Positions 991 to 57,336 of a stretch of DNA of 57,349 bases are shown here, piece by piece; the stretch's first letter is position 1, and each line of letters starts with the position of its first letter. The notes under the pieces were generated by a model. That model searched no databases. It was given only the letters and a program-made list of their open reading frames with translations, and was not told the origin of the DNA. Source of the DNA: a virus (Duplodnaviria > Caudoviricetes); the IMG/VR virus record IMGVR_UViG_3300032213_002371, positions 1 to 57,349 of that record; one strand, 5' to 3'. The translations under genes were made by a program, and so were the position numbers.

Positions 991-1761
991 ATGTGGCAAC
1001 CCGGTTGGCGCCGCCCGACGGCCCTCGGATCTCTCGGGCAGAACGAGATCCTCGCGCAGAAGATCTCGGGCCCGAAGGGCTCGAACCCCGGCGGCATTTA
1101 CCGCGGCGCCGACGGGGTCGAGCGCTACGTCAAGTTCTACACGTCGGCGATGCAGTCGGCCGGTGAAGTGCTGGCGAACCGCATCTACAACGACCTCGGC
1201 TTCATCGCACCCGACGCCGTCTTGCTCCAGATGGCAGACGGGAAGTTCCTCTACGCCTCGACGATGATCCCGAACCTCCGGCCGTACGACTACACCAAGC
1301 CGCAAGCCGTCGAGTTCCTGAAGGGCTTCCCGGTTGACGTCCTGACGATGAACTGGGACGTCTGCGGGATGGACAACGACAACTTCGCCTACCGTCCCGA
1401 CGGACGCGCGGTGCGCCTCGACAACGGCGCGTCGTTCCTGTCGCGCGCTCGTGGCTCGCGCAAGGACACGAAGTACCTGCTCGCCGTGAACGAGTACCAG
1501 TGGTTCATCCACCCGAAGCCCGGCTTCTACGATGCGATGGACCGCTACGGCGAGATCGCCGCACTCGCTGGAATCGATTCGGGTTCCGGCGTACCGGCGT
1601 ACTCGTCGACCGTCGCACGCATCGCCGCGCTGAAGGCGAAGCACGGCGGCTGGGAGCACTACGTCGCGCAGTACGCGCCGCTGTTCGAGCTTCGCGACGC
1701 CCAGATGGTCGTCGAGATGCTGAACGTGCGCCTCGCGTTCCTCCAGTCGAAGGTGCGTTAG
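991..1761 (+). CDS. HipA/PI3K-like atypical kinase-fold protein
   Basis: Gly-rich loop GSNPGGIY, YVK lysine, EVLANRIY helix, NWDVCG..NDN catalytic-loop-like and RLDNG metal-binding-like motifs. Confidence 0.65.
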   Translation: MWQPGWRRPTALGSLGQNEILAQKISGPKGSNPGGIYRGADGVERYVKFYTSAMQSAGEVLANRIYNDLGFIAPDAVLLQMADGKFLYASTMIPNLRPYDYTKPQAVEFLKGFPVDVLTMNWDVCGMDNDNFAYRPDGRAVRLDNGASFLSRARGSRKDTKYLLAVNEYQWFIHPKPGFYDAMDRYGEIAALAGIDSGSGVPAYSSTVARIAALKAKHGGWEHYVAQYAPLFELRDAQMVVEMLNVRLAFLQSKVR

Positions 1762-1795
1762 TCCGGCGTCACGGCCGAGGGTATAGTGCTCGGCC

Positions 1796-2971
1796 ATGGC
1801 CACGCCGATCGTACCCGACCATCTCGCGATCATCTTCGACCCCGAAAACTACGACTCGTGGCGTCATCTCGCGAACGGCTACTTGTACCTGCCGAGCGGG
1901 GCGAAGACGGGCACGGGGGTACAGGCGATCGGCCTCACCGGCAACCTCGGCCTGTCTGGACCCATCGGCAACTTCTGGTCGGGCCAGAACGCCATCCTCG
2001 TGATGCCCGGCAAGGACGTGAAGCGGCTCAACAAGCTCGCGGCCGTGCGCTACGCCAACGTCGATGCGCTGGTCGCCGACAACTTCAGGGCGTTCCGGCG
2101 TATCCGAGACGCGGCCCACGTTGACTACATCGCCGAGTACGTTGCCGAGGTGCTGGTAGCCTCGGCCTCGCCGGAACTCCGAGCCCGCATCTACGACCAG
2201 ACGCGCGCGGACGCGAACTCGCTCCGCGTGGGCGTCGAGGCGATCTGGCTGATCACCAGTCAGTCGGGTCGCCAAATCGTCGAAGTGAGCCGCGAGATCT
2301 ATGGCCGGTTCATCCAGCGGGCCGGGCGCTTCTTCACGTTCAACGAAATGTTGGTGAGCCTGAATCGATTCGTGCCCGAAGGCGCGCAGATGCTCGTGGA
2401 CATGCTCCCGCCGAAGAAGCCCACGGCGGCGGCGTTCTACTGGGCCTTCGCGCCGATGAAGACGAAGATCCCGCTCAACAAGATCGAGATGTCTCTCGAC
2501 AAGAAGGAAGGCTACTCGCCGGTCACGGTGGGCCAACTCCGTGCCGCCGCAGCATCGATGACCAGCCGCGTGCCCGCCTACTTCGGCAAGGCCCTTCGCG
2601 ACACGATCGAAGAAGAAGGCAGCGGCTTCTCGTTCGAGGTCGAGTGGCTCGCGAACCCGACCTACGATCCTGCGACTCGCGGCTACAGCGTCTTCATGCG
2701 CGTGCCACCGGGCTCGATCCTCTACACGATCGGCCGCGACCCCAAGCGTGACCTGTTGCAAGCCGTGCCTCTCTCCGTCCGCGGCATCTGGGTCATCAAC
2801 ATCCCCGATGAGATGGACAAGTTCGAGTTCCGCGATCAGCGCGTGCGGGACATCATCCACGACTACAACGAGGGCGACATCGAACTCGATGGGCTCTACG
2901 CTGCGATGCGTAAGCTCCGCGTTGACGTCCTCGCGCCCAACATCTACTGGACCACTCGGATCGAGAAGTAG
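1796..2971 (+). CDS. Hypothetical protein, paralogous to the N-terminal ~420 aa of the downstream 1527-aa protein; possible ADP-ribosyltransferase-like fold
   Basis: Colinear shared blocks with 2980..7563 (GV..IG...N, FW, FR..RI, SGFS.E.EW, VL.APN.[YF]WT); the ART call rests only on the ExE motif. Confidence 0.7.
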   Translation: MATPIVPDHLAIIFDPENYDSWRHLANGYLYLPSGAKTGTGVQAIGLTGNLGLSGPIGNFWSGQNAILVMPGKDVKRLNKLAAVRYANVDALVADNFRAFRRIRDAAHVDYIAEYVAEVLVASASPELRARIYDQTRADANSLRVGVEAIWLITSQSGRQIVEVSREIYGRFIQRAGRFFTFNEMLVSLNRFVPEGAQMLVDMLPPKKPTAAAFYWAFAPMKTKIPLNKIEMSLDKKEGYSPVTVGQLRAAAASMTSRVPAYFGKALRDTIEEEGSGFSFEVEWLANPTYDPATRGYSVFMRVPPGSILYTIGRDPKRDLLQAVPLSVRGIWVINIPDEMDKFEFRDQRVRDIIHDYNEGDIELDGLYAAMRKLRVDVLAPNIYWTTRIEK

Positions 2972-2979
2972 GAGACGCC

Positions 2980-5900
2980 ATGTCCTTCGGCATCGCCCCC
3001 AAGGCCCGCACTCCGTTCAAGGCCCCGGCCGTGGGCTACACGCGACGTGACCCGGACAACATCGGCATCGCGATCAAGTTCAGCCCGCCGCCCTCCGTCT
3101 TCTCGGGCGCCTACAAGTACGATCCCGAGTGGACGCTCAAGAACTTCGCCAAGCGCCGCATCTTCGCACCTCCCGGCGGTCACGGCGGCGCGAGTGGCGG
3201 CGTTCCCACGATCGGCTTCTCCGAGAACTTCGGATCGACGGGCTTCTGGGAAAACAACGGCTTCTACTTGACGATGGATGGCTCAGCGTTCTTCCACTAC
3301 GAGGATGGACGGCCGCGTAACCGAAACGTCATCGAAGCGACCTACACCGACTCTGCCTATGCCGACCGCTTCATCGCTTACGGCTTCCGCTACGCGAAGC
3401 GAATCGCGAATGACTCGTCGACGGGGAACTCCCTCATCCGGCAGGTGGCGCGCTCCCTCGCCTTCGCGGCCCTCATGGACCGCCGGGAACTGCTGACGGC
3501 CGAGTGGAACAACGTGCCGATGCTGCCCGACACCGTGTCGCGCATCATCAACGACTACGGGTTCATCCCGGCACTGGATGCGGCGTACACCTATCGCAGC
3601 GCGGCCGAACTGATCTCGGCGCTCCGCGTGTTCCTGTTCGACTACTTCAACTCGAACTACAAGAAGGACTACCCGGACTACGTCTACTCGGCCTACGACG
3701 TCACTCAGATCAACGACGCTTTGCCTGACGGGCGCAAGGTTCCGGCCGGTCCTTTGAAGCTCTCGTTCGCGCGCGAATCGATTCTCAAGGCCATGAGCCG
3801 ACTTCGCAGCGGCAAGTTCCTCGACGCGAAGGGCATCAGCGAACTCGTCGATCACACGCGCTCGGAGGCGCGTCAGCTCATCTCCGGGTTCTCGGGCGAG
3901 CGTGAGTGGGCCGCTTTCGAGCCCAAGCGCACCTTCGAGCGCCGAATCAAGGGTGAGCAACTGACGACTGCCGAGGGCGCTGAAGGCGGCGGCATCATCG
4001 TCGCGATTCCGCCTCTCAGCCTGCTCGTGTGGAACGACTCCGGCGACAGCCGGAAGCGCGAGTTGTTCGACAAGTACGTCTCGCAGTGGACCTTCGCGGG
4101 GCTGTTCGTCGCGCGCACCAAGACTGCGAGCAGGAGTGAACTCAAAGACCTGTGGCAAGCGCTCAGGGACAACAACTTCGCGCGGGCCGAGGTCAACTGC
4201 GATGTGCTCTACGCCCCGAACCCGTTCTGGACGGCCCAACTGTCCGGCATGAAGACCGTCGAAGTGCCGAATCTGCCGAACTTCGGCTACGGCGGCACCG
4301 CGGACGCGCTGGCCGCGCTTCTTCGCAAGCGCTACCGCGACTGGGACGATCTGCGGAGCAACGAGACGTTCCCCGGTGGTGACGCACTCGAACTTCAGAC
4401 GTGGGTGCGCGAGAACGTCGTCACGCCGGACCAGTACGCCGATCCGCAGTACACCGGACTTCAGGCCCTCATCGCAGAGTCGTGGAAGGCTACGCGCTCG
4501 CCGCTCATGGCTGGCGACCTCTACTACAGCGACTACGCCCGCCTCCTCATCGGCAAGCCTGCGAACGGTGGGTCGGTCACGGTGTCTATGCCGACGCAGC
4601 CGCCGGGTGTGCCGATCCTGCGTTCAAGCGACGCCGAGTTCGTGCGCTCGACGATGCCGTCCGACCTTCGTGCGCGAGCAGGCTCCGACGATCTGCCGAG
4701 CATCCTGAAAGCGCAGGAGTGGTTCAGCGTCCACTACGATCCGGCGAGTGACGTGGCACCCGTGTACCTCGACCCGACGAACCTCGTGCAGACGGCGCTC
4801 ATCAAGATCTCGTGGGTCGAGCAGTTCATGGCCCTGAAGATGACCGAGCCGAAGCTCAAGAACGCGCGGGTCTACGACAACGGCGCCTACGTCTGGAAGC
4901 TCATGTACGCCGGTCAGAGCATCTACGGCGGCGACGTCTACCTCGATCCGAACAACGTACCCGAAGACGTCGTCAAAGCGATCCATCCGGTCCCGCCGAC
5001 CATGGACGAAATCAAGCGCGGGCTTCTGGCCGTGGACACCATGGACGTCGCCTTCGGCGGCCGAGAGCCGTTCGAGGCCTACGTCTGGAATCGATTCGGC
5101 CGTCGCAAGTTTGGTCCGGCCAACGCCGACATCATCATCTACCTCTACGAGAACATCGAAGCCGTTTATCGGGTCGCCGAATACTCCGACATGACGCCGC
5201 GCATGGTCGAGTCCATCGCAGCACAGAAGGGCATCCCGCCGCTGCCGGAAGATCCGCAGGATCACCCAATCGGCGATCGGATGCGCGTCGTCGAGTACAT
5301 CCAAGCGCGGGCCATCACGAGCCTGAACTCGACCGGCATCCAGAACGTGCTCGATCGCGCGCGGGAGATGTCGGGCATCGACCTCGACGGCAACCTCACG
5401 CCACGAAGCATCGACGAGGCGATGAACACGCTGACCTACGGGACGCAGCCGGTCTTCGCGCTCGGAGAGAGGTTCGTCAACGCGCGGTCCCGCCCCTACA
5501 ACATCGTGGGCCAAGCCACGGCCGACGTGTTCGTGAAGAAGCTCATCCCGAACTTCTCGGACTACAAGTTGACGGGGCGATCGTTCGCGAACGAGGTCGC
5601 GGCCTACAACGACTCCTACAGTTACTCCGACGCGACGATCGAGCAGATGCTCGCCTTCGTGCGGAAGTTCCCGCCGGGCGTCGAGGTGCCGTACTTCCGC
5701 TCGCGCGGCGACTACGAGGAGTTCCTCACGCGTCAGGTCGGCGATCTTACGGTGCCGTCGGACCTGAGCGACGCCACGGAGAAGATCCGCAGCATCGACG
5801 TGTCAGAGGGCGGCTGGCGGTGGGCGACGAAGGAGTCGCTCGTCGCCATCGCGCGCAGCCTTGGCCTCTCGGTTCGCGACGACTGGGCCGACGGTGCGCC

Positions 5901-7563
5901 GCTCGCTCCGTTCTTCACGCGGGAGGAAGCCAAGGCGTTCGGCGAGAATCGATTCGGCAAGAAGCAGGGCTACAAGATCCTCATCAAGATCGCCGACAAG
6001 ATCGGCAAGGGCGGCGTCGCTGATCTCACGCGCGCCGAGGTCGAGGAGTACGGCCCCGAGTTCTACGAACAGCCGAAGCCGATGCACCCGCTCGTGCCGG
6101 TTTGGCCGGGCTATCACCAGTCTGACCCGACGGGCGCCCTGATGGTGTATCTCGGCTCCGACGGTGACAGCTCTGGCCTCGCCGACAAGTACGAACTTCC
6201 GTCTCCCACGATGCGCCTGATCGTGAAGACGGTCCTCAACAAGTCGCCGATGGACATCACCTTCGAGGACATCTCGGACTTCGTCTACGACTACCCGCCC
6301 GGCTCGCCGCAGTTCGAGTCGCTGAAGACCGACGAGGAGTACAAGAACCGCGAGCTTTTCGTTCATCTCGTCGACCGGTACGGCGGCAACGAGTCCGAGG
6401 CGTACGACTACCAGAGCACGGCCATGAAGCACTACGCGAAGCGCTTCCTCGGCGAAGGCGGCAGCGTAGAGGAGATGACGATCGGGCAGGTCCGCGACGC
6501 TGCGAAGGACTTCGTGAAGGGCGGCTTCGACATGGCCGACCTGCCGTTTATGAACCCGACGAAGACGAAGGAGTACGTCGAGTTGAGGACCGGCAGCGGG
6601 ACGTTCACGCAGGTCGCCGCCATCGTGACGAAGAAGACCGGCAAGGGCTACACGGGCGACTTCACGCCGAATGAGGTCGACGCTGCGATCGAGGTGTTCA
6701 GGGCGCAGCCGCAGGCGCAGGCCCAGACGATCGCTACGAAGTACGTCCCGGCCGTGCCGCAACCTGACACGCTGTTGGGCGGCGAGTTCGTGGTTCGCGG
6801 CCCCAAGTGGGGCTGGGGCGATCAGGACGGCGGTCCCGGCAACGTGGGGACGGTGCTGTACCAGACCGACATGGCGAACTGGTTTCGTGTGACGTGGCCC
6901 AACGGCTACACGGACAGCTATCGCTACAACCCGTGGGGCGGCATGTTCGACCTCACCGTGGTCGTGCCGCAAGGAACGGGGCAGAAGAAGTGGTCCCCGG
7001 TCACCGTCGAGGACGTGATCGCCATGGCTGAGGGCCTCGACAAGCCGATCGGAAGCATCGACGCCATCAACGAGTTCCTCAAGGCCGAGATCGCGAAGCG
7101 GGGCCTTGAGCCGCTCAAGGCGTCGTATCGGATCAAGGTCAGGGCAAAGGCCACTACGATGACCGGCAAGGAGATCGAGGCCCTGACGAAGAGTGACATC
7201 CTGCAAGCGCTGGATGCGCTGGGTTACACGGCTGGGACTGCCGAGCAGATTGACCTGTTCCAGAAGGCGCTCGGCCCCGCCGTCTCCGAGCTTGACCAGC
7301 CTTTCGGGACCGAGGCCAAGGCCGTGAAATACGTCAAGTCGGTGCTCGGGGACTACCAGATCGAGAAGACCTTGGACAACATCGAGATCCTGATCGTTCG
7401 GGCCTACCAGAACACGGGCAAGTCCGACAAGGAAGCGTTGAGCAAGAACGACGTCAACACGGCACTTGACCAGTTGCGGCAGGAGAAGATTTTCGAGAGC
7501 GTCGTGCCGGGCAGTGGCTTCAGCGGAATCGATTCGCGGCCCGTGTGGCCACGGTGGGCGTGA
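2980..7563 (+). CDS. Large multidomain protein (1527 aa): ART-like N-terminus, internal duplication, short helical repeats, MIB/HERC2 domain
   Basis: Long ORF with AGGAG RBS; MIB/HERC2 signature VVRGPKWGWGDQDGG...GTV...VTW.NG...YRY...FDL near aa 1270-1325. Confidence 0.85.
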   Translation: MSFGIAPKARTPFKAPAVGYTRRDPDNIGIAIKFSPPPSVFSGAYKYDPEWTLKNFAKRRIFAPPGGHGGASGGVPTIGFSENFGSTGFWENNGFYLTMDGSAFFHYEDGRPRNRNVIEATYTDSAYADRFIAYGFRYAKRIANDSSTGNSLIRQVARSLAFAALMDRRELLTAEWNNVPMLPDTVSRIINDYGFIPALDAAYTYRSAAELISALRVFLFDYFNSNYKKDYPDYVYSAYDVTQINDALPDGRKVPAGPLKLSFARESILKAMSRLRSGKFLDAKGISELVDHTRSEARQLISGFSGEREWAAFEPKRTFERRIKGEQLTTAEGAEGGGIIVAIPPLSLLVWNDSGDSRKRELFDKYVSQWTFAGLFVARTKTASRSELKDLWQALRDNNFARAEVNCDVLYAPNPFWTAQLSGMKTVEVPNLPNFGYGGTADALAALLRKRYRDWDDLRSNETFPGGDALELQTWVRENVVTPDQYADPQYTGLQALIAESWKATRSPLMAGDLYYSDYARLLIGKPANGGSVTVSMPTQPPGVPILRSSDAEFVRSTMPSDLRARAGSDDLPSILKAQEWFSVHYDPASDVAPVYLDPTNLVQTALIKISWVEQFMALKMTEPKLKNARVYDNGAYVWKLMYAGQSIYGGDVYLDPNNVPEDVVKAIHPVPPTMDEIKRGLLAVDTMDVAFGGREPFEAYVWNRFGRRKFGPANADIIIYLYENIEAVYRVAEYSDMTPRMVESIAAQKGIPPLPEDPQDHPIGDRMRVVEYIQARAITSLNSTGIQNVLDRAREMSGIDLDGNLTPRSIDEAMNTLTYGTQPVFALGERFVNARSRPYNIVGQATADVFVKKLIPNFSDYKLTGRSFANEVAAYNDSYSYSDATIEQMLAFVRKFPPGVEVPYFRSRGDYEEFLTRQVGDLTVPSDLSDATEKIRSIDVSEGGWRWATKESLVAIARSLGLSVRDDWADGAPLAPFFTREEAKAFGENRFGKKQGYKILIKIADKIGKGGVADLTRAEVEEYGPEFYEQPKPMHPLVPVWPGYHQSDPTGALMVYLGSDGDSSGLADKYELPSPTMRLIVKTVLNKSPMDITFEDISDFVYDYPPGSPQFESLKTDEEYKNRELFVHLVDRYGGNESEAYDYQSTAMKHYAKRFLGEGGSVEEMTIGQVRDAAKDFVKGGFDMADLPFMNPTKTKEYVELRTGSGTFTQVAAIVTKKTGKGYTGDFTPNEVDAAIEVFRAQPQAQAQTIATKYVPAVPQPDTLLGGEFVVRGPKWGWGDQDGGPGNVGTVLYQTDMANWFRVTWPNGYTDSYRYNPWGGMFDLTVVVPQGTGQKKWSPVTVEDVIAMAEGLDKPIGSIDAINEFLKAEIAKRGLEPLKASYRIKVRAKATTMTGKEIEALTKSDILQALDALGYTAGTAEQIDLFQKALGPAVSELDQPFGTEAKAVKYVKSVLGDYQIEKTLDNIEILIVRAYQNTGKSDKEALSKNDVNTALDQLRQEKIFESVVPGSGFSGIDSRPVWPRWA

Positions 7564-7597: not shown

Positions 7598-7972
7598 ATG
7601 GCGAAGCGCAAGAAGCCAGTGAAGCGTCGCGGACTTGGGGCACTCCCCAAGGAAGTCGGCCGCGGAGCCCCGCGTGAGTCGGCCGTCTACCTGAAGGACA
7701 AGGCTGCGGCGTCGCGTGAGTTGAAGGCCATCGTCCCCGGTGATGCGCGGCAGTACGACGCGGCAAAGAAGGCGTTCTCGAAGGAGATCGCCGACAAGCA
7801 CTGTTCGCTCGCCCTCACGGCCCTCTCGAACGCGGCGTTCTCGGCCGGTGTCGCGCGGGCCTCGGCCGTCGCTCGCGGCGAGCCCGGTGGCGCCGAGGAC
7901 CTCTACAACGACTTCGTCGCCCAGCGAGACGAGTACCTCGCGATCTGCCACCCTGAGAAAAAGAGCAAGTAG
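7598..7972 (+). CDS. Small basic helical protein with two conserved Cys (paralog family with 7982..8377 and 53774..54121)
   Basis: AGGAG RBS then MAKRKKPVKRRGLGALP; motif C..A...L..AA.SAG...C. Confidence 0.75.
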   Translation: MAKRKKPVKRRGLGALPKEVGRGAPRESAVYLKDKAAASRELKAIVPGDARQYDAAKKAFSKEIADKHCSLALTALSNAAFSAGVARASAVARGEPGGAEDLYNDFVAQRDEYLAICHPEKKSK

Positions 7973-7981
7973 GAGACTGAC

Positions 7982-8377
7982 ATGGCCCTTGGATTCTCGC
8001 CCTCCCAGCACCGCAAGCGCTCGCGCAGCTACAACGCGAGCACCTCGACGATCCTGAAGTCGCTTCAGAAGGCCGTCGCCAAGGGCAACTGCCCCGGCGC
8101 GCGCTCGATGCTCGTCGAGGCTTCGATCACGGCGGGTGCCGCTTACGCCGAGGACTTCGACATCGGCCGCAAGAAGAAGAAGTCCATCTCGGCGCACCCG
8201 GCGATCAAGGCTGTCCGCGCTGCGAAGAAGCTGATGCAGGCGAAGTGCCCGACGAAGGCGAAGAAGTCTGGTGGCAGCTTCAAGAAGATGAGCAAGGCCG
8301 AGGCCAAGAAGTTCGACAAGGTGCTGAAGAAGGCCGCCAAGGGCAAGATCAAGGGCGCGAAGGTCGGAAAGTTCTAA
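7982..8377 (+). CDS. Small very basic protein, same Cys-containing family, Lys-rich tail
   Basis: AGGAG RBS; LG..P..HR, GNCPGARSMLVEASITAG and second Cys in QAKCP. Confidence 0.75.
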   Translation: MALGFSPSQHRKRSRSYNASTSTILKSLQKAVAKGNCPGARSMLVEASITAGAAYAEDFDIGRKKKKSISAHPAIKAVRAAKKLMQAKCPTKAKKSGGSFKKMSKAEAKKFDKVLKKAAKGKIKGAKVGKF

Positions 8378-8380
8378 GCC

Positions 8381-8602
8381 ATGGACGTCATCCACCCCGT
8401 CAGGCTGTACGCTGCGCCACCGGACCAGCCCGCCGCCCCGTCGGCGAAGGCGCTGATCCTGCCGCTCGCGATCTTCGCGGCCATCGGGCTCGTCCTCTAC
8501 AAGACGGCGTCGAGTGACTTCGCGGAAGAAGATCGACGCAGGAAGAACCCCGTGCGCGGCATCCAGACGCGGGAAGACTACGAACGCTTTTTGGCATCCT
8601 GA
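8381..8602 (+). CDS. Small single-pass membrane protein
   Basis: Hydrophobic segment ALILPLAIFAAIGLVLY. Confidence 0.65.
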   Translation: MDVIHPVRLYAAPPDQPAAPSAKALILPLAIFAAIGLVLYKTASSDFAEEDRRRKNPVRGIQTREDYERFLAS

Positions 8603-8620
8603 CCGACAGGCCGGTAGAAC

Positions 8621-8666
8621 GAAAAAAGGGGGCTGACGGCTGAAAACTCCGTCGGCCCCCAGTTTT
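8621..8666. terminator. Probable bidirectional intrinsic terminator between convergent genes
   Basis: AAAAAA-GGGGGCTGACGG...CCGTCGGCCCCC-AGTTTT stem flanked by A and T tracts. Confidence 0.75.
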
Positions 8667-8697
8667 GTTCGCGGGAACTTTCCGCGTTGCGGACTAT

Positions 8698-10062
8698 CTA
8701 CAGGTCGTCGTACCGGCTCCAGCCTTCCTCATCCTCGGGCGACACGTCATCGAGGATCGCGTGCGGCGGGATCAGGCCGACCTTGGGCTGCGGGGCTCGG
8801 AGAGCCAGAAGTTGCCCGCCGTTCGGGTCCTGCGAATCGATTGCGTCGAGGCCCTGCGCCATGTTCGCCAGCGCGGCCTGAAGGTGCGGCGTCTTCCGGT
8901 AGCAGATTTCCTTCCCGACTCGCTCCTCGACGATCGCGCGCTCCTCAAGCAGGGTGTCGATGATTTCGCGCACGCGCTTCTTGAGAAGATCGGCCTGACG
9001 GATGACGTAACCGATGGGCGTCGGCATGTCGGAGATGAACCGCAGCACGAGCGCGCGGTCACGCATGTCCCGCGAGCCGGTGATCCTTTCACCGAGTTCG
9101 ATGACGCTCTTGAGATGCAGGTCCGCGATCTTCAGCGCGCTCTCCAGCTCCGTCGTCCCGACGTGCCACGGCTGTCCCGAGCGGGCCTGTCCGACGTCCC
9201 ACGCGAGCAAAAGAGCGAGCTTCGCCGCGATCGACGTGGTGCGGGAGCACGCAGCGGCGGCTCGGCGGTTCGCGCCCGTTCGCAACGGCCGCATCGCCTC
9301 GTACCAGTCGTTCCACATCTTCTCCCCGGCCGGATCGAGCCACAGGCACGGGCCGGGAGGGCTCGCGGGCGTAGCGAGTTGCCGGAGCCACTGGGTAATC
9401 GCGAGGCGCTTCTGCGGGTCGTCGATCGGCGGGGTCGCGAACTCGCGCTCGGGCTCGGCGTGCAGCGTCAGGAAACGCGCGAGGAAGCCGCCGGTCCAGT
9501 CGGCCTGTTCGGTGTGGCGCTCCAGCAGGTCCGTGGCGACGCCGCAGAACAGAGACAGGCGCGGGTCGTTGATCGGCCCCTTGCGGCTGTTCGCGAGAGC
9601 ACGGCCGATCGGGATGCAGTCCCACAGATTCGTGAAGGCCGTCTTCAAGGCGAGCATGTAGCCCTCCTCGGCCTTCGCGAGGAACTCGCCCCACTCGCCG
9701 TAGAGCAGCACCATGCGCTGTTGGGCGCGAAGGCTCTCGTACAAGCCTTCCTGCGAGCCGGGGATCTCGCCGACGCATCCGGTGATGGCGTCGTGCATGA
9801 CACGCCGCGCGATGTTGATGCTCGCCGTCTTACGCGACTTCGATGAGTCGCCGACGATCATCGTGTAGAGATTGCCCCACAAGGGGCTCGTGTACGGGAC
9901 CGCGTAATCGATTGGTACGGCTTGCGTCAGGCAGGTGAGCGCGCCTGCCAGATGGTAGGCGACGTTCGCGTCGGTACAGTTCGCCGCGTACTCGACGTAG
10001 TTGCGGACGAAACCTGTCGGCGGCAGGGCGGCCCAGACTTCAGCTTCCGAGATCATCGACAC
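8698..10062 (-). CDS. DUF3987/YfjI-like P-loop ATPase (replicative helicase-like)
   Basis: NLYTMIVGDSSKSRKT Walker-A variant, GSQEGL, YGEWGEFL, GGFLARF motifs; possible winged-helix C-terminus. Confidence 0.7.
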   Translation of the reverse strand: MSMISEAEVWAALPPTGFVRNYVEYAANCTDANVAYHLAGALTCLTQAVPIDYAVPYTSPLWGNLYTMIVGDSSKSRKTASINIARRVMHDAITGCVGEIPGSQEGLYESLRAQQRMVLLYGEWGEFLAKAEEGYMLALKTAFTNLWDCIPIGRALANSRKGPINDPRLSLFCGVATDLLERHTEQADWTGGFLARFLTLHAEPEREFATPPIDDPQKRLAITQWLRQLATPASPPGPCLWLDPAGEKMWNDWYEAMRPLRTGANRRAAAACSRTTSIAAKLALLLAWDVGQARSGQPWHVGTTELESALKIADLHLKSVIELGERITGSRDMRDRALVLRFISDMPTPIGYVIRQADLLKKRVREIIDTLLEERAIVEERVGKEICYRKTPHLQAALANMAQGLDAIDSQDPNGGQLLALRAPQPKVGLIPPHAILDDVSPEDEEGWSRYDDL

Positions 10063-10083
10063 TCCATGTCGGGTTGGACCGGC

Positions 10084-10127
10084 ACCATAAAACAGGTCTT
10101 GACATCTGTCAATGGCTGCGCTACATC
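10084..10127. promoter_or_regulatory. Overlapping divergent sigma70-type promoters centred on the palindrome TTGACA-TC-TGTCAA
   Basis: Minus strand TTGACA-17 nt-TATGGT; plus strand TTGACA-17 nt-TACATC (weaker); lies between divergent genes. Confidence 0.65.
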
Positions 10128-10193
10128 ATGCCCCACGAAAGACAAAGCGACCACGGACGCACGCCAAACGAGCGGCAGTGCAAGGGTTTTTCG

Positions 10194-12913: not shown

Positions 12914-13128
12914 TGGGCCTCATGCACGATGCAGGGGGGATCGATCTCAACTGCGCGCACTGTGGCGAGCTTCGCCTCGACGCAGGAGGCATGACGTGTC
13001 ACTCCTGCGGGGACGTCGAAACGGTGTGCTTCCAGTGCATTGAGCGCGAGGACAGCCGCCGCTTCGGCGTCGGGGATCGGGACTACTTTTGCCGGTACTG
13101 CCGGGAGGCGATGGATGACGACGACTGA
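12913..13128 (+). CDS. Small Cys-rich zinc-finger protein
   Basis: Four CxxC pairs; start overlaps the previous stop. Confidence 0.6.
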   Translation: MGLMHDAGGIDLNCAHCGELRLDAGGMTCHSCGDVETVCFQCIEREDSRRFGVGDRDYFCRYCREAMDDDD

Positions 13129-13948: not shown

Positions 13949-14148
13949 CGGCCGTCCGGCTCTCGCGCGGGCTCTGCATGCTCGTCGCGTTCACCTCCCT
14001 GATCGGCGCACCGGCCTTCGCCAACATCGGAACCGACGAACTCGTGCCGTGGTTCTGCGCGACCATGCTCTCGTCCGCGATCGGTTTCATGCTGTTCGAC
14101 CACGAATACAAGCGACTTCGCCGCGAAGATCGCGATCTCAACGACTGA
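13945..14148 (+). CDS. Small two-TM membrane protein
   Basis: ATGA overlap; two hydrophobic segments. Confidence 0.55.
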   Translation: MTAVRLSRGLCMLVAFTSLIGAPAFANIGTDELVPWFCATMLSSAIGFMLFDHEYKRLRREDRDLND

Positions 14149-41121: not shown

Positions 41122-41124
41122 GGG

Positions 41125-50571: not shown

Positions 50572-50614
50572 TTGACCAACACGAATCGATTCGGGTGCTA
50601 GACCCGAGGGTCGA

Positions 50615-51280: not shown

Positions 51281-51370
51281 GGTGCTTTCCTCTTTCTGGC
51301 CCGCTCTGGGCCTTGGTTGTCGCCCGAAGGCGGGTGTTGTTCTACTCCGAATCGATTCGGAGTGGTGAGA

Positions 51371-52104: not shown

Positions 52105-52130
52105 GATCGACTCCGAATCGATTCGTGGGA

Positions 52131-52613: not shown

Positions 52614-53093
52614 TCAACGTGGGCACTTCAGCTTGTTCAGCTTGGCGAACTTGCCGAAGTGCTTCTTCGCACCCTTGTTGTAGGCGCACGCCGCGTCGCC
52701 AGCCTTCACGAAGCTGCCGAGGAAGATCGTCTTGCCGTCCTTGTGCACGAAGGCGCGGTAACGATTTCCGCGCTTCGAGACGCCCTTGAAGCCGGTCCCA
52801 TTCGTAGACAACGGACCCGTGTTGATCGTGTTCTCGCCTTTACTGGCGAGACGCAGATTCGCACGGCGGTTGTCGAGGTGATCGCCGTTCTTGTGATCGA
52901 CGATCGTGCCCGACTTCGCGCTCATCACGAAGCGATGCAGGTACAACTTGTAGGAGTTCTTCCCGCTGCCGATGGTCGTCGCCGGATAGCCCTGATGCAG
53001 GTGCCACGAGCGACGCACGGCCTTCGCCAGCACGTCGGAGTCAACCTTGACGCACTTGCGCGCACCCTTGACGGGAAGGCACTTCTTCGCCAT
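52614..53093 (-). CDS. HNH endonuclease with an AP2 DNA-binding domain
   Basis: LHRFVM..VDHKNGDHLDNRRANLR; GFKGVS...YRA...FLGSF...AA.AYN. Confidence 0.88.
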   Translation of the reverse strand: MAKKCLPVKGARKCVKVDSDVLAKAVRRSWHLHQGYPATTIGSGKNSYKLYLHRFVMSAKSGTIVDHKNGDHLDNRRANLRLASKGENTINTGPLSTNGTGFKGVSKRGNRYRAFVHKDGKTIFLGSFVKAGDAACAYNKGAKKHFGKFAKLNKLKCPR

Positions 53094-53312: not shown

Positions 53313-53365
53313 CGCAGTCACCTTGTCGGCGTCAGCGCCGAATCGATTCGAGATCGTACACCGGG

Positions 53366-53770
53366 TCAGCGGGCTCGACGAGCCTTGCGCCCCGCGCGCT
53401 TGGCGGCGGGTGCGTTGGCGACGAACTGCGTCGTGGCTCGGCGCTTCACGCGCTGCGTCTCCTGACGCTCGGCCTTCGTGAGCGACTTCCAAGCAGCGGC
53501 CGGGAGATACCTGTCGCAGCGAACGCCCTCGGCCGTCTTGCGACACGCCTTCTTGCCCGACTCGGTGCGCCAGTCTTCCTTCGTCCACTTCGTCAAGCCG
53601 CGCTGCGCCGTGGTCTTCGTGCCGCAGTATCCGCCACCCGCATCACGGTACATCTTGCCCGCGAGCTGCATGGCGCGGGCGCTGAACCGTCCGCCCAGCT
53701 TCTTGATGGCCTTCTTCTTGGACTCTTCCCAGAGCTTCGGGTTCGTCCGACCCTTTACGCACGCAGCCAT
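53366..53770 (-). CDS. Basic protein, DUF5872-like
   Basis: FSARAMQLA...Y...GGGY, Q..L.KWTKE.W.T.SG, RYLP..AW..L. Confidence 0.7.
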   Translation of the reverse strand: MAACVKGRTNPKLWEESKKKAIKKLGGRFSARAMQLAGKMYRDAGGGYCGTKTTAQRGLTKWTKEDWRTESGKKACRKTAEGVRCDRYLPAAAWKSLTKAERQETQRVKRRATTQFVANAPAAKRAGRKARRAR

Positions 53771-53773
53771 CGG

Positions 53774-54121
53774 CTACCTCATGCAACGGACTGCGAAGGC
53801 GTCACGGCTTTTCATGCGTCTAGCGTTCAGCCTGTCGTAGCTCGCCTTGAACGAACCATCGACGTACTCCAAGTTCCGCTCGACCTTGCCCGCCGAGACC
53901 GCAGCCTTTCCCGCGCTTGCAAGGGCCTCCTTGCAGCGGCCCGCGCTAACGTGACCCTCCGTCTCCGACACCAGACTGGACATCACGCTCATGTCATCGC
54001 TCGCCTCTTGCCGATGCACGTCGGGCAGAGCCCCGAGACCCGCGAGAGCGCCGCCGTCGCGCCGGAGGACGATGTAAGCGCCGACACCGAGCAGGATGTA
54101 GCCGAAAACCTTGTTGCCCAT
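53774..54121 (-). CDS. Membrane-anchored member of the small two-Cys helical family
   Basis: N-terminal TM, LAGLGALP..HR, GRCKEALASAGKAAVSAG, C-terminal RC. Confidence 0.7.
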   Translation of the reverse strand: MGNKVFGYILLGVGAYIVLRRDGGALAGLGALPDVHRQEASDDMSVMSSLVSETEGHVSAGRCKEALASAGKAAVSAGKVERNLEYVDGSFKASYDRLNARRMKSRDAFAVRCMR

Positions 54122-54155
54122 GATGAACCTCCGAGGTGTGTGCAGCCTACCGGAG

Positions 54156-54200
54156 AAAAGAGCAGGGGCCCAATCGGTTGTGCCGACGGGCCCCTTCTCC
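54156..54200 (-). terminator. Intrinsic terminator after the spike gene
   Basis: Minus strand AGGGGCCC..CGG..CCG..GGGCCCCT then GCTCTTTT. Confidence 0.65.
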
Positions 54201-54218
54201 TGTCACGCCGGGACTGGA

Positions 54219-56186
54219 CTACGGCTTGATGCCGAACTCCTGCACCTCGATCGCGATCATGTCGGCGCCCGAGGGGCCGATGGCGCCGAGGTAGCGACCG
54301 ACCTTCGTCACGAAGTCGTTGGTGGCGAGATCGCCGTACCCGCAGAGCTTGCCGTCCGTGTACAGGTAGAGGTTGCTACCCGCCGTCGGCGCACCGAACA
54401 GGTTGGTGATCTTCACGACGCCAGCGGTCGCGACGTAGCACTCACTCGTGCCGAGATCCTGCGTCACGATGCCGACCACCGCGCCCGCCGACTTGGAGGC
54501 CTTCGCCACGGTCGAGCCGTTGAACGACACCGCGAGGCCGTCCGAGATCGCCGCGCCGCTGCGAGCGAACGCGCTCTCGACCTTGGCGTGAGCGTGCAGC
54601 AAGTCCGCGTTGGAGTGGATGCCCGCGACGAGGGTGTCGAGGTTGTCCGCGCTGACGGCCGCGCTGGTCGAGTCGCCGTTGATCTTGAACTGCGAGGGGA
54701 GGCTCTTGAGCGCGATCTGGTTCGAGCCGTTGATCTGGATGGTGGAGTCGTCCACCTTCGCCGCGATGCCAGCGCCGCTGACGTTGATCGCGCCGTTCGC
54801 AGCCGCCGAAGCGACGAGGGCGTTCGAGGAGTTCGCGAGGCCGTTGCCGATCGTGAGGCTGACCTGCGTGCCGGTCATCACGAGCGGGCTGGCCGCCGTG
54901 TAAGTCTGGCCCGCGGCGTAGAGCACGAACTGGATCGCCGTCGTGCCCACCGAGGCCGGAGCCGGGGTGTTGCAGACGTAAGCCTGATTGACGGCCACCG
55001 GGTTGGGATCGGACGGGGTCTTGAGGCAGTAGACCCACACGCCGGTCGCGCTGGTCCCGGCCGCCATGTCGGCGGCGCGGGTCAGGGTGTAGTTGGGGCT
55101 CGTGCCACCGAACACCCAGATGCCGACGTCGGCAGCGGCGGCGGCGCTGTTGTTGAGGAGGATGCGGTCGCCAGCGGTGAAGTCGTTGATGCCGTCATCG
55201 TTGATGCCCGCGAGGAAGCCGTCCTTGGTTGCAGGCTCAGAGAACGCGCTGCTGTTGTTCGCGAGATCCCAGTACCACTGGGCTTCCTGCTTGTAGTCGA
55301 GCCCGGCCTCTGCGGCGGCGACGGCGTCATCGACGTAGAGCTTGGTGGCCGCGTGGCCGTTCTGCGTCGGCTCGCCGACGGAGAGGGCGTTCGAGAACGA
55401 CGGCGTGGTACCCGTGAAGGTCTGGTCGTTGCGGTTGAGCAGCGCGACGTTGGACGAGAGCGCGCTGTCGGACACGAGGTTCGCGGCGCTGATCGTGAGC
55501 AGCTTGGCGTTCGAGATGCTGCCCGCGAGCATGTCGTTCGTGACGGCGCTGGGGGCGATCGTCAGATCGACGTTGTCGACGTTCGCATCACCCTTGATGC
55601 TGAACGAGCCGGTGACGTCGCCACCCGCGAACGAGACGCTGCGGCTGTTCGCCCACGCGGACGCGGTCGAGGCGTTACCGGACAGGGCGGCGGTGATGGT
55701 GCTCGCCGCGAAGTTGCCCGAGCCGTCGCGCTTGACGATCTTGCCCGCCTCGTTAGCGGAGGCCACGCCCGAGGCGAGGTAGGCGTCAGCGATGGCGGTG
55801 CCGTTCCACACGCCCGTCGTGATCGTGCCGACGCCCGTGATGCCGGTGTAGCTGCCACTGATGCGGCCCGAGGCCACGGTGCCGCTGGTGAGATCGTTAG
55901 CGTTCAGGTCGCCGCTGATCGAGTCGGCGGTGATCGTGCCGGTGGTGACGATGTTCTGGCTGCCGAAGTTCGGATCGATCTTCGAGCCCGCGATTGCCGC
56001 GCTGGCGTCCACGTTGTCGTTCGTCAGCTTGGCCGACGAGACGTTGCCCAAGGCGTCGGTCGAGAGCACGCCGTCAGCGGTGGTCTGGTTGAGGAGCTTG
56101 ATGTCGCCGACGTCGATGGTATCCGCGCTCCCAGCGGGGCGGTATACGCCGTTCGAGTCGAGGTAAATCGCCTTCACGTTCGCCAT
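54219..56186 (-). CDS. Spike/fibre-like receptor-binding structural protein
   Basis: Gly/Ser/Thr/Asn-rich fibre-type repeats (ITGVGTITTGVWNGT, IVKRDGSGNFAA, HAATKLYVD, LTRAAD). Confidence 0.75.
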   Translation of the reverse strand: MANVKAIYLDSNGVYRPAGSADTIDVGDIKLLNQTTADGVLSTDALGNVSSAKLTNDNVDASAAIAGSKIDPNFGSQNIVTTGTITADSISGDLNANDLTSGTVASGRISGSYTGITGVGTITTGVWNGTAIADAYLASGVASANEAGKIVKRDGSGNFAASTITAALSGNASTASAWANSRSVSFAGGDVTGSFSIKGDANVDNVDLTIAPSAVTNDMLAGSISNAKLLTISAANLVSDSALSSNVALLNRNDQTFTGTTPSFSNALSVGEPTQNGHAATKLYVDDAVAAAEAGLDYKQEAQWYWDLANNSSAFSEPATKDGFLAGINDDGINDFTAGDRILLNNSAAAAADVGIWVFGGTSPNYTLTRAADMAAGTSATGVWVYCLKTPSDPNPVAVNQAYVCNTPAPASVGTTAIQFVLYAAGQTYTAASPLVMTGTQVSLTIGNGLANSSNALVASAAANGAINVSGAGIAAKVDDSTIQINGSNQIALKSLPSQFKINGDSTSAAVSADNLDTLVAGIHSNADLLHAHAKVESAFARSGAAISDGLAVSFNGSTVAKASKSAGAVVGIVTQDLGTSECYVATAGVVKITNLFGAPTAGSNLYLYTDGKLCGYGDLATNDFVTKVGRYLGAIGPSGADMIAIEVQEFGIKP

Positions 56187-56189
56187 GGT

Positions 56190-56558
56190 TTACTTCTCCT
56201 GCTTCTCTAGCACCGTCACGGTGCCGGTTTCCGGGTCGATGGTGCAACCTGACCCGAGGTCGATGTTGAGCCGCTTACTGGCCGCTTCGAGGATCGCCGT
56301 GTACTGCGTCCGCGACTGACGCTCATGCTCTGCGGCGGAAGACCGACGGGCGTCGATCTGCGCGAGACGACCCTGCGGATCGATCTTCGCGAGAAGCGCC
56401 TGACGCTCCATTCCCGCCGTGAGTCCCTCCTGCGACGCCAGCTTCAGCTCTGCGCTGAAAAGCCGGAGTTTCAGGATTTCCTCCTGCGTGAGAGACGGCC
56501 GCTCGGGAACCTCAGAGACGACCGCCTTGCCCGACACCTTACGCTGCTTCTTTGCCAT
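56190..56558 (-). CDS. Hypothetical helical protein
   Basis: Packed between structural genes; GAGGTG RBS. Confidence 0.6.
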   Translation of the reverse strand: MAKKQRKVSGKAVVSEVPERPSLTQEEILKLRLFSAELKLASQEGLTAGMERQALLAKIDPQGRLAQIDARRSSAAEHERQSRTQYTAILEAASKRLNIDLGSGCTIDPETGTVTVLEKQEK

Positions 56559-56565
56559 CGCCCAA

Positions 56566-57336
56566 TCACCTCATGGAAAGTGCGGTGCACGGAGCCACCG
56601 CTAGGGTTGTTTCAGTTAATGCAAATCCAAATGCTTGCACAACATGGCCACTGATAATCGGGGGTGTCAAACTTAACGCACCCGACTGGCCGACATAATA
56701 GATCTTTCCCACTTGGAGTGCGTCAAAGCCCGCGTACCGGCCGCCGATCCTGACGGCAACGTGGGTCGCGTCGATGACGCTCTCGACGACACCGACGCAG
56801 GGCATGAAGTCGGCATATCGGCAGTCCGCGGGCTCGGCATCACCCGAGTCCGAATCGATTCGCACGAGCGTACCAACGTCAACGTCGAAGGCCGACACAG
56901 TCACGAGATTCGTGTCGTCGCCCGATGGTGTCGGGGGCGTCGGTGAGGAGCCACCACCCGAGGCGGGCATCACGCCGCCCGTCTGCGCGTACGGTGTCGT
57001 GAGGATCAGACTGCCGGGGCTCTCATCGATCGTCGCCGTGAGAGTCGCGACGCCGACAGAGACGCTCGCGGACAGCGTCACGACGGACTCGTCTGCGGCC
57101 GACACAGCGCACAGGCGCGACAGAAGACCGATGGCACCCGCGGCCCGCGCACTCGACGGCACCACGCGGAACAGGCTCAACGCGAACTGTTGAAGCAAGC
57201 CGCAGGTCTCGGCCGGAAGATATGGGCTCGTGACGGCGCCCGTCGTCAGGTTCAACGTGAGCGGCTGCACGCTCGTTTGAGCCTGAAGCCGTAGGCCGAC
57301 GTTTTGTCCGTCGAGTTGTGTCGCCGTGACGGCCAT
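56566..57336 (-). CDS. Structural protein with a C-terminal capsid-cement/beta-clip-like domain
   Basis: G..VRI...A..A...CVGVV...L.VGKIYYVG..GAL...PP...VQ..G.A pattern. Confidence 0.55.
   Translation of the reverse strand: MAVTATQLDGQNVGLRLQAQTSVQPLTLNLTTGAVTSPYLPAETCGLLQQFALSLFRVVPSSARAAGAIGLLSRLCAVSAADESVVTLSASVSVGVATLTATIDESPGSLILTTPYAQTGGVMPASGGGSSPTPPTPSGDDTNLVTVSAFDVDVGTLVRIDSDSGDAEPADCRYADFMPCVGVVESVIDATHVAVRIGGRYAGFDALQVGKIYYVGQSGALSLTPPIISGHVVQAFGFALTETTLAVAPCTALSMR

Follow-up and report, generated by a model that had tools for sequence, protein, structure and literature searches.

The window analysed here, a 57,349-nucleotide (57 kb) stretch of a freshwater phage genome estimated to be 76% complete, encodes a ParB/Spo0J/Noc-type protein, a protein with an N-terminal HTH domain, a protein with a basic tail and an HNH endonuclease (Table 1). 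A set of iteron-like repeats opens some 1.3 kb of non-coding DNA with lower G+C, and this layout recurs in the two complete relatives G001 and G021. Dispersed over the whole window are copies of the palindromic 10-mer GAATCGATTC, which, with their core-bearing near-matches, we refer to as the lattice.

Table 1 Palindromic sites and associated features of the window.
Feature	Position	Strand	Remarks
Exact GAATCGATTC site	1571–1580	.	
Exact site	2362–2371	.	
Exact site	3775–3784	.	
Exact site	5088–5097	.	
Exact site	5946–5955	.	
Exact site	7526–7535	.	
Near-match GAATCGATTG	8834–8843	.	intact AATCGATT core
Near-match TAATCGATTG	9905–9914	.	intact core
Exact site	10653–10662	.	
Exact site	11972–11981	.	
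Exact site	13319–13328	.	
Near-match	14762–14771	.	intact core
Exact site	15487–15496	.	5 bp past stop of 14600–15481
Near-match	16844–16853	.	intact core
Exact site	17809–17818	.	within PolA gene; position shared with L005
Exact site	19147–19156	.	
Exact site	20833–20842	.	
HTH protein (N-terminal HTH)	22034–23050	+	HTH domain kept in all three lattice genomes
Near-match	22410–22419	.	intact core
Exact site	22676–22685	.	
Exact site	23129–23138	.	immediately precedes iteron array
Iteron-like direct repeats	23149–23324	.	4–5 × about 31–33 bp
Near-match	24321–24330	.	intact core; loop of 24-nt inverted repeat 24293–24354
Exact site	24966–24975	.	16 bp 5′ of ParB-like start codon
ParB/Spo0J/Noc-type protein	24992–26182	+	ParB N-terminal and HTH domains (Pfam ParB_N, HTH_23); leading candidate reader
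Exact site	26240–26249	.	intergenic
Exact site	26649–26658	.	intergenic
Exact site	28083–28092	.	
Exact site	28935–28944	.	
Exact site	29613–29622	.	3 bp past stop codon
Exact site	30953–30962	.	2 bp past stop codon
Exact site	32194–32203	.	
Exact site	33731–33740	.	
Exact site	33971–33980	.	
Near-match	35088–35097	.	intact core
Exact site	36236–36245	.	4 bp past stop codon
Exact site	36718–36727	.	integrase codon 6; position shared with G001
Exact site	37369–37378	.	integrase codon 223; position shared with G001
Exact site	38511–38520	.	adjoins stop of 38520–39350 (−)
Protein with Lys/Ala-rich basic tail	38520–39350	−	common to lattice genomes G000 (the window), G001, G021
Near-match	39426–39435	.	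intact core
Exact site	40916–40925	.	
Near-match	42681–42690	.	intact core
Exact site	45240–45249	.	
Exact site	47658–47667	.	
Exact site	48705–48714	.	
Exact site	50583–50592	.	intergenic
Exact site	51349–51358	.	intergenic
Exact site	52115–52124	.	6 bp past stop codon
HNH endonuclease	52614–53093	−	in G000, G001, G021; absent at matching place in G002
Exact site	53340–53349	.	intergenic
Exact site	56852–56861	.	

The enrichment of the palindrome is confirmed. Its 38 exact copies, which lie where the original prediction placed them, compare with 0.11 on average and never more than 1 in 100 dinucleotide-preserving shuffles; inside genes there are 25 copies, where synonymous shuffles that hold protein sequence and codon usage fixed gave 0.55 on average and at most 3. 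Graded conservation extends the palindrome to 12 bp, cGAATCGATTCg, with C at position −1 in 29 of the 38 exact copies and G at +1 in 33; the 8-bp core AATCGATT occurs 47 times in the window and CGAATCGATTCG 24 times. The palindrome is perfect and its conservation falls off symmetrically outward from the centre, which fits a putative dimeric reader. To this extent the proposed lattice of binding sites for a dimeric protein agrees with the data; the reader and the role (condensation, packaging, segregation or self-marking) are what we infer below.

The in-gene copies use all three reading frames (13, 7 and 5) and are read as ESI[RQPL], [RG]IDS or xNRFx. Outside called genes lie 13 of the 38 sites in the window and 24 of 59 in G001, against 12–13% non-coding DNA, so that spacers are enriched about threefold even with 25 and 35 sites, respectively, inside genes. 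This in-gene share of about 60–66% shows no bias in position along the gene. Between orthologues the sites change position without loss of density: in orthologous genes, three positions are common to the 13 sites of the window and the 10 of G001. The use of three frames, the spacer enrichment, the synonymous-shuffle control and this turnover together bear out the earlier claim, made from copies within and between genes, that selection acts on the DNA and not on the protein. That the sites have no function, arising as a side effect of biased repair or gene conversion (a very-short-patch-like drive) or of codon or peptide preference, is scarcely credible. Biased mismatch repair does raise the frequency of some short palindromes, but inner one-mismatch variants of the site are not depleted (3 are present), the synonymous shuffles remove codon bias, and under a drive or a codon preference the sites would be spaced at random.

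Six contigs show over-even spacing. Exact sites in the window have a mean spacing of 1494 bp with a CV of 0.58 (P = 3e-4 versus uniform-random) and a smallest gap of 240 bp where about 40 bp is expected; for core sites the CV is 0.49 (P < 5e-5). The corresponding CVs are 0.65 in G001, 0.29 in L012, 0.39 in L239, 0.28 in L238 and 0.79 in G021 (P ≤ 0.006 for each), and smallest gaps are 6–10 times larger than random. As a control, the abundant CTCGAG is spaced randomly in L240 (CV 0.95) and L011 (CV 1.35). Nine of the ten near-matches reported earlier as filling gaps keep the core intact and all nine fall in gaps of at least 1837 bp (P = 0.002); the one at 40267 is mismatched at an inner base. 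The notion of an evenly spaced lattice holds as spacing that is more even than uniform-random but not periodic.

Sites 0.7–1.5 kb apart, whose gaps are never very short and seldom very long, also match bacterial Okazaki-fragment sizes, and a palindrome would serve both strands whatever the fork direction. The sites could then be where the phage replisome (a DUF3987 helicase-like protein, the Zn-ribbon protein and PolA), a module that is conserved in the clade, prefers to prime the lagging strand or load a helicase. We consider this very improbable, since known primases read 3–4 bases of single-stranded template whereas symmetric conservation over 12 bp suggests a double-strand dimer, and lattice-free relatives have the same replication genes at similar identity.

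Comparison with relatives gave a new result: the lattice defines a phage clade, and the invariant part of the site is ATCGAT. It is present in 7 of the 22 rows of an AAA_24 tree, where it is clustered (0/500 shuffles as low), and absent from the 15 other relative contigs; the lattice contigs that hold PolA form one clade with support of 100/100. The flanks switch symmetrically between lineages, from GA..TC in the window and two relatives (the 12-bp site being identical in the window and G001) to A..T with degenerate outer bases in L222, R..Y in L012, L238 and L239, and C..G in G021, a complete 75-kb genome. Dispersed copies number 38 in the window and 59 in G001, and G021 has 114 copies of ATCGAT. 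The original prediction described the motif as two abutting GANTC sites of the CcrM/HinfI type around ATCGAT. We reject this reading: the GANTC pair is not kept in L222, L012, L238, L239 or G021, which retain ATCGAT only, and it is incidental. No methylase gene of PF01555 or PF02086 (Dam- or N4/N6-type) was found in six frames of G000, G001 and G002. As a separate observation, these phage genomes have clearly been shaped by restriction, with GCCGGC found 0 times against 80 expected and CTCGAG once against 49.

ATCGAT is a typical type II recognition sequence, that of ClaI, and the sites may instead be enzyme targets at which the HNH endonuclease, a candidate under this explanation only, nicks or cuts, or a DNA-modifying enzyme acts. 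Such an enzyme would leave regular interruptions in one strand, entry points for recombination or replication, or a self-mark. The distribution of the HNH gene, 51–63% identical among the three lattice genomes that carry it, points this way, as do the restriction imprint and the presence of a recombination module (PD-(D/E)XK nuclease, AAA_24, DUF669 and SbcC-like ATPase). We nevertheless hold the explanation to be improbable. A palindromic cut site enriched about 10-fold or more in its own genome would be self-destructive unless protected, and the two methylase families are missing from the genomes searched; flanks that are graded and vary by lineage resemble the profile of a binding site more than the fixed specificity of an enzyme. 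Free-standing HNH genes among structural genes are often mobile homing genes, and that alone could explain the patchy presence of this one.

To place the site in bacterial DNA, one genome for each of 185,579 species was scanned in a complete search for two 10-mer sites 440–470 bp apart. The scan matched 82 stretches, and no genome matched twice. Fifteen genomes picked for the site pair contain 2–72 ten-mers or 1–18 twelve-mers per 2.5–14.3 Mb; per Mb this amounts to no more than about 18 ten-mers, compared with 663 in the window. No PolA relatives were found in the same collection, and none of its genomes shows a comparable site density, for a scan that covers the 10-mer and a host that may lie outside the collection. 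The motif is dense in the phage clade and rare in the bacteria scanned, in keeping with the earlier view that it is not cyanobacterial HIP1. HIP1 (GCGATCGC) is likewise a short palindrome hugely over-represented inside and between genes, but it is a property of the cyanobacterial host chromosome, whereas the lattice follows the phage clade.

A host protein could still read the site, be it a LacI/Cra-type regulator, a nucleoid or partition factor or a methylase, in which case the flanks would reflect the hosts. LacI/Cra-type operators resemble this sequence, and the ten-mer is presumably part of the E. coli Cra operator. The window and G001 share the 12-bp site though every candidate phage reader has strongly diverged, and in the AAA_24 tree, at G022, L240 and L010, lattice-bearing and lattice-free close relatives are intermixed, a pattern to be expected where the host plays a part. 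The ten-mer also occurs in a paper on E. coli Cra binding sites. Over-even genome-wide spacing is, however, unneeded for titrating or recruiting a regulator, and a host factor would find few targets outside the phage, since none of the genomes scanned for the 10-mer, rather than for its ATCGAT core, is rich in sites. We therefore regard a host reader as unlikely.

Among phage-encoded candidates, the protein at 24992–26182 matches the PHROG ‘ParB-like partition protein’. Its PF02195 (ParB_N) score of 24.6 bits is just below the 26.3 cut-off, with 32.4 for the G001 protein and 23.0 for that of G021, and HTH_23 is matched with E 9.5e-5. A three-sequence profile matches solved ParB/Spo0J chains with E 2e-14 over the N-terminal and HTH domains, the alignment extending through the HTH region (residues 31–210 of 7bnr), and solved Noc chains with E 1e-6. 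At the place of the GERRxRA arginine patch the window has GKTRFRA, G001 GKQRMRA and G021 GRRRTLH; the canonical GERR thus reads GKTR or GKQR in the first two, which makes CTP-clamp behaviour uncertain. A site precedes the start codon by 16 bp in the window and by about 45 bp in G001, and G021 has no site directly before the gene.

Among genomes that extend over the region, a ParB_N homologue occurs in 3 of 3 with the lattice (G000, G001, G021) and in 0 of 2 without it (G002, G023). Across these five genomes, co-occurrence with the lattice is not unique to ParB, being shared by the HTH domain, the basic-tailed protein and the HNH endonuclease. The ParB-like proteins are only 23–34% identical, and their putative recognition helices differ even between the window and G001 despite the identical site. 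Since the window is 76% complete and the short lattice contigs end before the ParB region, the reader could also be encoded elsewhere. The basic-tailed protein, with its low-confidence predicted fold, may be considered a weaker candidate.

Two ParB-like proteins had been predicted, together with a role in segregation. The one at 24992–26182 is solid; the other, at 11855–12913, has a Zn ribbon and a faint ParB-like PHROG match (E 7e-4). A search of G000 and of the complete genomes G001 and G021 with one ParA model, PF13614, found nothing at E ≤ 0.1, and a sole clear ParB-like protein without a ParA partner makes classical segregation doubtful. Compared with ParABS, the phage has the N-terminal ParB domain and the HTH, and neither this partner nor clustered parS was found: 38–47 sites are dispersed over the entire 57 kb, unlike the few parS that cluster near par genes or the origin.

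The HTH protein at 22034–23050 is a candidate alternative reader, or may bind the iterons; its HTH domain, 35–53% identical among lattice genomes, is better conserved than the ParB-like protein. If it, the basic-tailed protein or a gene in the missing 24% reads the lattice, the sites may impose a genome-wide transcription block in which a repressor stops RNA polymerase and keeps a prophage silent, as stoperators do. According to the available part of PMC9283540, Cluster A mycobacteriophages have such sites, with more than 20 for the L5 repressor gp71 across the genome, a density near that of the lattice, and their proposed role is to halt elongation and so keep the prophage silent; they are, however, asymmetric 13-mers, monomer-bound, transcription-oriented and confined to short intergenic spaces, whereas lattice sites are palindromic and mostly intragenic. 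All relatives retain an integrase, G002 has been classified as a provirus, and the spacer enrichment agrees with such a block. In addition, 11 of 30 intergenic co-directional sites lie at most 5 bp past the upstream stop codon (3.0 expected, P = 2e-5), where a trailing ribosome could no longer push the polymerase, although this may just be the least constrained spot. With most sites in genes and unbiased along them, and no repressor found, we judge a transcription block read by another phage protein possible, if unlikely.

Reading by the ParB-like protein has parallels in KorB–OB and Noc–NBS, where a ParB-type HTH protein is likewise combined with many dispersed palindromic sites on one replicon. 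RK2 has about a dozen OB sites against 40–110 lattice sites, and Noc about 70 NBS in 4.2 Mb against one site per 0.7–1.5 kb in the phage. KorB acts together with KorA and with IncC, a ParA homologue for which the phage has no PF13614 counterpart, and the CTP-binding motif of the phage protein is partly degenerate; Noc serves a chromosomal cell-division function with a membrane-binding helix. As described in the accessible part of PMC11790492, KorB of plasmid RK2 is a ParB-family HTH protein that loads at palindromic sites scattered over about 60 kb and, as a CTP clamp, slides to silence distant promoters. Noc of Bacillus subtilis is a ParA-less ParB paralogue that nucleates on many dispersed palindromic NBS and spreads (PMC8429893, available part).

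A further precedent comes from Cluster O mycobacteriophages (Corndog and relatives), for which the available part of PMC4351075 describes more than 30 copies of an invariant 17-bp dyad-symmetric repeat in a genome of about 70 kb. These repeats lie between and inside genes, are predicted to be dimer-bound and have no known function, and the phages, like ours, also encode a ParB-like domain protein. The repeat, TGTTCGG-N3-CCGAACA, is longer and has a spacer, and its copies are about two-thirds intergenic or near gene starts and denser toward one genome end; lattice sites are mostly in genes, with a 6-bp palindromic core and lineage-specific flanks. Neither even spacing nor lineage flank switching is reported in that part of PMC4351075. 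Kinship with Cluster O phages is rejected: the sequence differs, the window has no nucleotide match among 50,697 phage records, and the best PolA matches are 21–27% identical.

We put at roughly 40% the probability that the sites are nucleation points for a phage-encoded dimeric DNA binder whose likeliest identity is the ParA-less ParB/Noc-type protein. The 10-mer would then be the version, particular to this lineage, of a palindromic docking site centred on ATCGAT and recognised by a symmetric binder, with selection maintaining about one site per 0.7–1.5 kb across the whole chromosome. Sites would be written into genes via tolerated codons and into spacers, often right past stop codons, and would disappear and arise anew elsewhere at constant density and evenness. 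From each site the protein may spread, slide or bridge over about 1 kb, so that the entire genome would become coated, much as by KorB on RK2 or Noc on the Bacillus chromosome. Bacterial DNA very rarely contains the site, so the lattice would also mark the phage chromosome as ‘self’. If this reading is true, the lattice could serve prophage silencing or maintenance, or the protection or compaction of phage DNA.

The palindrome GAATCGATTC occurs 38 times in the window against 0.11 copies expected from dinucleotide shuffles, which bears out the count of about 38, far above base composition, in the original prediction. The site (wild type in the window, cGAATCGATTCg) is a graded 12-bp palindrome, with C at −1 in 29 of the 38 copies and G at +1 in 33; the full form, CGAATCGATTCG, is present 24 times, and the 8-bp core, AATCGATT, 47 times. 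For the 12-bp site, enrichment over the shuffle expectation is ~350-fold. The excess survives codon-level control: 25 copies lie in genes, against 0.55 expected when proteins and codon usage are held fixed. As had been proposed, copies lie both between and within genes: all three reading frames are used, and 13 of 38 fall outside called genes, compared with a non-coding share of 13%.

The spacing had been described as even. Exact sites are indeed more evenly placed than random (CV 0.58, P = 3e-4), as are the cores (CV 0.49, P < 5e-5), but they are not periodic. The smallest gap between exact sites is 240 bp, against about 26–40 bp expected. Imperfect copies of the 10-mer were said to fill gaps, and the nine with an intact core all fall within gaps of at least 1837 bp (P = 0.002). 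Beside this spacing and the codon-level excess, a functionless by-product is hardly credible as an account of the enrichment.

The window and G001, a complete relative with the same 10-mer, have 13 and 10 sites, respectively, in their orthologous genes, of which only three coincide in position, two within the integrase and one within the DUF3987 gene. Positions thus turn over while density is kept, and the selected trait is density rather than position, in line with the earlier view that selection acts on the DNA. Of 30 intergenic sites between co-directional genes of these two genomes, 11 follow the upstream stop codon by no more than 5 bp (3.0 expected, P = 2e-5). Such a position might be the cheapest one for a site, or might hint at a link with transcription. 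The longest site-poor stretches hold structural and tail genes without homologues in the compared relatives, and could be modules exchanged too recently to have acquired sites.

Features of the window and, where stated, of the relative G001
Position	Feature	Observation
2980-7563	1527-aa protein	Sole family match is a MIB_HERC2 domain
15487, 29613, 30953, 36236, 38511, 52115	Sites 1-6 bp after stop codons	Equivalents in G001
16291-18933	DNA polymerase A	N-terminal uracil-DNA-glycosylase-like domain
22034-23050	Accessory module, part 1	N-terminal HTH domain conserved; 53% and 35% identity among lattice genomes
	Accessory module, part 2	~1.3 kb non-coding, lower G+C; opens with a site and iteron-like repeats
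23149-24528	Repeats and non-coding stretch	4-5 iteron-like direct repeats of 31-33 bp, then ~1.2 kb without convincing gene, 55-63% G+C
24293-24354	24-nt inverted repeat	92% complementary; near-match site in 14-nt loop; one half-site-like element per arm, CCGAATCGA / TCGATTCGG
24992-26182	Accessory module, part 3	ParB-type protein
30722-30952	Replaced segment	229 bp, most of gene 30636-30950, swapped for 12 other letters in contigs from another run; right edge adjoins site at 30953
38520-39350	Basic-tailed protein	Low-confidence fold prediction, pLDDT 63
40916-45240, 53340-56852; G001 7899-17855	Longest site-poor stretches	Structural/tail genes
52614-53093	HNH endonuclease	

The window (57,349 bp, 65% G+C, estimated completeness 76% in its IMG/VR virus record) carries 60 genes in the GC3-based calling made for this analysis. 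Its replication and recombination module encodes a DUF3987 helicase-like protein, an SNF2 helicase, a Zn-ribbon protein, a PD-(D/E)XK nuclease, AAA_24, DUF669, a UDG-PolA fusion and an SbcC-like ATPase. Also identifiable are a ParB_N+HTH protein, a DUF2201 protein, a tyrosine recombinase, a GH19 lysin and an HNH endonuclease, while many genes lack any family match; neither a tRNA nor an Rfam family was found in the window. Searched against 50,697 cultured-phage records, 25 kb of the window gave no nucleotide match, and the best matches to its PolA were 21–27% identical. Assemblies that contain near-identical sequence bear the label aquatic or freshwater metagenome. None of the 11 sequencing runs listed as containing window-like sequence is an RNA run; contigs from four of them are strain variants of the window, with 584 differences.

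Relatives were collected via PolA, AAA_24 and one conserved structural protein. Their comparison shows that ATCGAT is the constant part of the lattice, that is, of the ATCGAT-centred sites dispersed at roughly kilobase intervals, and that the trait belongs to a phage clade.

Sites in relatives that carry the lattice
Genome or contig	Size	Site	Count	Spacing
G001	complete, 85.8 kb	same 10-mer	59	CV 0.65, P < 5e-5
L005	5.7 kb	same 10-mer	3	too few for spacing
L222	10 kb	AATCGATT, outer bases degenerate	8	
L012, L238, L239	5-13 kb	R-ATCGAT-Y	11, 8, 18	CV 0.29, 0.28, 0.39
G021	complete, 75.4 kb	no AATCGATT; ATCGAT	114 (7.1 expected)	CV 0.79, P = 0.006

The flanks of ATCGAT in G021 carry C at −1 in 82 of 114 copies and G at +1 in 74 of 114. 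Density rises as the specified site shortens, reaching about one site per 0.65–0.75 kb in the three R-ATCGAT-Y contigs. The lattice-free relatives G002, G022 and G023 hold 3, 1 and 0 copies of ATCGAT against 4.5, 4.3 and 3.9 expected, and no ATCGAT excess is seen in 15 of the 22 rows of relatives in the AAA_24 tree. The trait is clustered on that tree, requiring at least two changes, a number as low as which was reached in 0 of 500 shuffles; on the PolA tree, from which G021 was left out, the five PolA-bearing lattice contigs form a 100/100 clade. An excess of CTCGAG in the relatives L240 and L011 was considered as a second lattice and ruled out by its random spacing (CV 0.95 and 1.35); abundant yet random, it serves as a spacing control. 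The 14-mer was found in at least 116 IMG/VR stretches, and among the matches listed only G001 was enriched. Elsewhere in IMG/VR, L051, an unrelated viral contig (55% G+C) with four exact ten-mers and 15 copies of ATCGAT over 11.3 kb, shows a weaker enrichment. L228, a 19-kb contig with a DUF2201 relative, is enriched in all GATC-containing palindromes (TGATCA 18, ATCGAT 15, CGATCG 32), a pattern that differs from the lattice.

To assess bacterial chromosomes, a set of 185,579 genomes, one per species, was scanned to completion for two sites 440–470 bp apart. The scan gave 82 stretches with no genome matched twice; judging from the one in 37 window gaps of this length, a genome at phage density should give tens of matches. 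As far as a 10-mer-based query of these genomes can tell, the lattice is not host-imposed. Fifteen matched genomes contain 2–72 ten-mers or 1–18 twelve-mers per 2.5–14.3 Mb (no more than 18 ten-mers per Mb, where the window has 663), and five Planctomycetota genomes among the matches hold 1–18 twelve-mers only. By title, 23 of the 80 bacterial two-site stretches listed (L138–L217) are from Planctomycetota. L219, a stretch of a bacterial genome with 8 copies in 8 kb, was rejected as a lattice, being an unrelated 155-bp tandem repeat, and no PolA relatives were found in species-representative genomes. Against these densities, a host protein as reader of the sites is a rather improbable alternative.

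The motif had also been read as two abutting GANTC sites. This pair is missing in L222, the L012 group and G021, and no methylase gene of PF01555 or PF02086 was found in the window, G001 or G002; the methylation reading therefore fails. Avoidance of hexamer palindromes is strong and lineage-specific in the window, G001, G021, G002 and other relatives, as expected of restriction pressure, and the avoided set varies. Under an order-3 Markov model, GCCGGC occurs 0 times against 80 expected and CTCGAG once against 49 in the window, CGATCG 0 against 64 and CCGCGG 0 against 105 in G021, and CGGCCG twice against 81 in G002.

Conservation that is symmetric and decays outward, together with symmetric flank changes, points to a dimer on double-stranded DNA; use as priming sites is, beside this symmetry, very doubtful. 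When gene content was compared between the lattice genomes (window, G001, G021) and lattice-free ones, what stood out was a three-part accessory module, situated downstream of the SbcC-like gene. ParB_N was detected in all three lattice genomes and not in G002 or G023, both of which include the matching region, and a three-sequence profile of the ParB-like protein aligns with solved chains of ParB, Spo0J and Noc (E 2e-14), the match covering the N-terminal and HTH domains. No ParA (PF13614) was found, the complete genomes G001 and G021 included, which makes the protein, like Noc, an orphan relative of ParB; it had no tblastn match among 50,697 phage records.

From these sequence comparisons we favour, at a probability of about 0.4, a reading in which a phage-encoded dimeric binder, most likely this ParB/Noc-type protein, would nucleate at each site and spread ~1 kb, so that the whole phage chromosome, and no other DNA, would be coated. 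Several observations run counter to this choice of reader. The ParB-like proteins are just 23–34% identical, their putative recognition helices differ, and the arginine patch is degenerate in the window and G001. The HTH domain, the basic-tailed protein and the HNH endonuclease share the same presence pattern, and co-occurrence rests on n = 5 genomes. That another protein reads the sites, in a stoperator-like block of transcription, is in our view unlikely; stoperators reach a density like that of the lattice, but are asymmetric and monomer-bound (PMC9283540). That the sites are targets for nicking, with the HNH endonuclease as candidate enzyme, or for base modification is a quite improbable further alternative. 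The neighbouring DUF2201 gene was rejected as lattice-linked, being absent from G021, while its relatives L229 and L230 have no lattice. An Atlas look-up gave no usable lead.

The repeat-bearing stretch within the module could represent an origin or encode a non-coding RNA; it had no Rfam match. In G001 and G021 the matching place is taken up by non-coding DNA of like length, which in G021 holds two promoter-like TTGAC-N17-TATACT elements and a AATCGAAG..CTTCGATT hairpin similar to the window's inverted repeat at 24293-24354.

A broader form of the ParB/Noc-type reading, which we hold as possible though doubtful, is that an aquatic phage clade writes a private ATCGAT address code, onto which a ParB/Noc-type protein lacking a ParA partner, or else its HTH neighbour, would load on phage DNA only, coating all of it as viral chromatin for silencing, maintenance or protection. 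Code and reader would co-evolve, the flanks being switched between A..T, G..C and C..G round an invariant core, with a less specific site giving a denser lattice.

The nearest described phenomenon is that of Cluster O mycobacteriophages, in which a 17-bp dyad repeat of unknown function is reported to occur more than 30 times and which also encode a ParB-like protein (PMC4351075). Mechanistic models are offered by KorB-OB (PMC11790492) and Noc-NBS (PMC8429893). What is new in the present lattice is its over-even spacing, a mainly intragenic placement, the existence of natural lattice-free relatives, and a very short invariant core with symmetric, lineage-specific flanks. Literature searches found no description of the lattice, and uses of the exact 10-mer were, among the matches listed, primers or unrelated.

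To our knowledge, dispersed phage dyad repeats such as those of Cluster O have been described and never explained, and we know of no role for most phage ParB-like proteins. A strongly enriched site, over-even spacing in several independent genomes, and natural variants with the same core and other flanks and densities, beside lattice-free close relatives, make the question testable with few proteins and oligonucleotides. The lattice also gives a comparative handle on the co-evolution of a DNA reader with thousands of bases of ‘address code’ within coding sequence. If the reader spreads from its sites, this would be a phage case of genome-wide self-marking via sequence instead of base modification.
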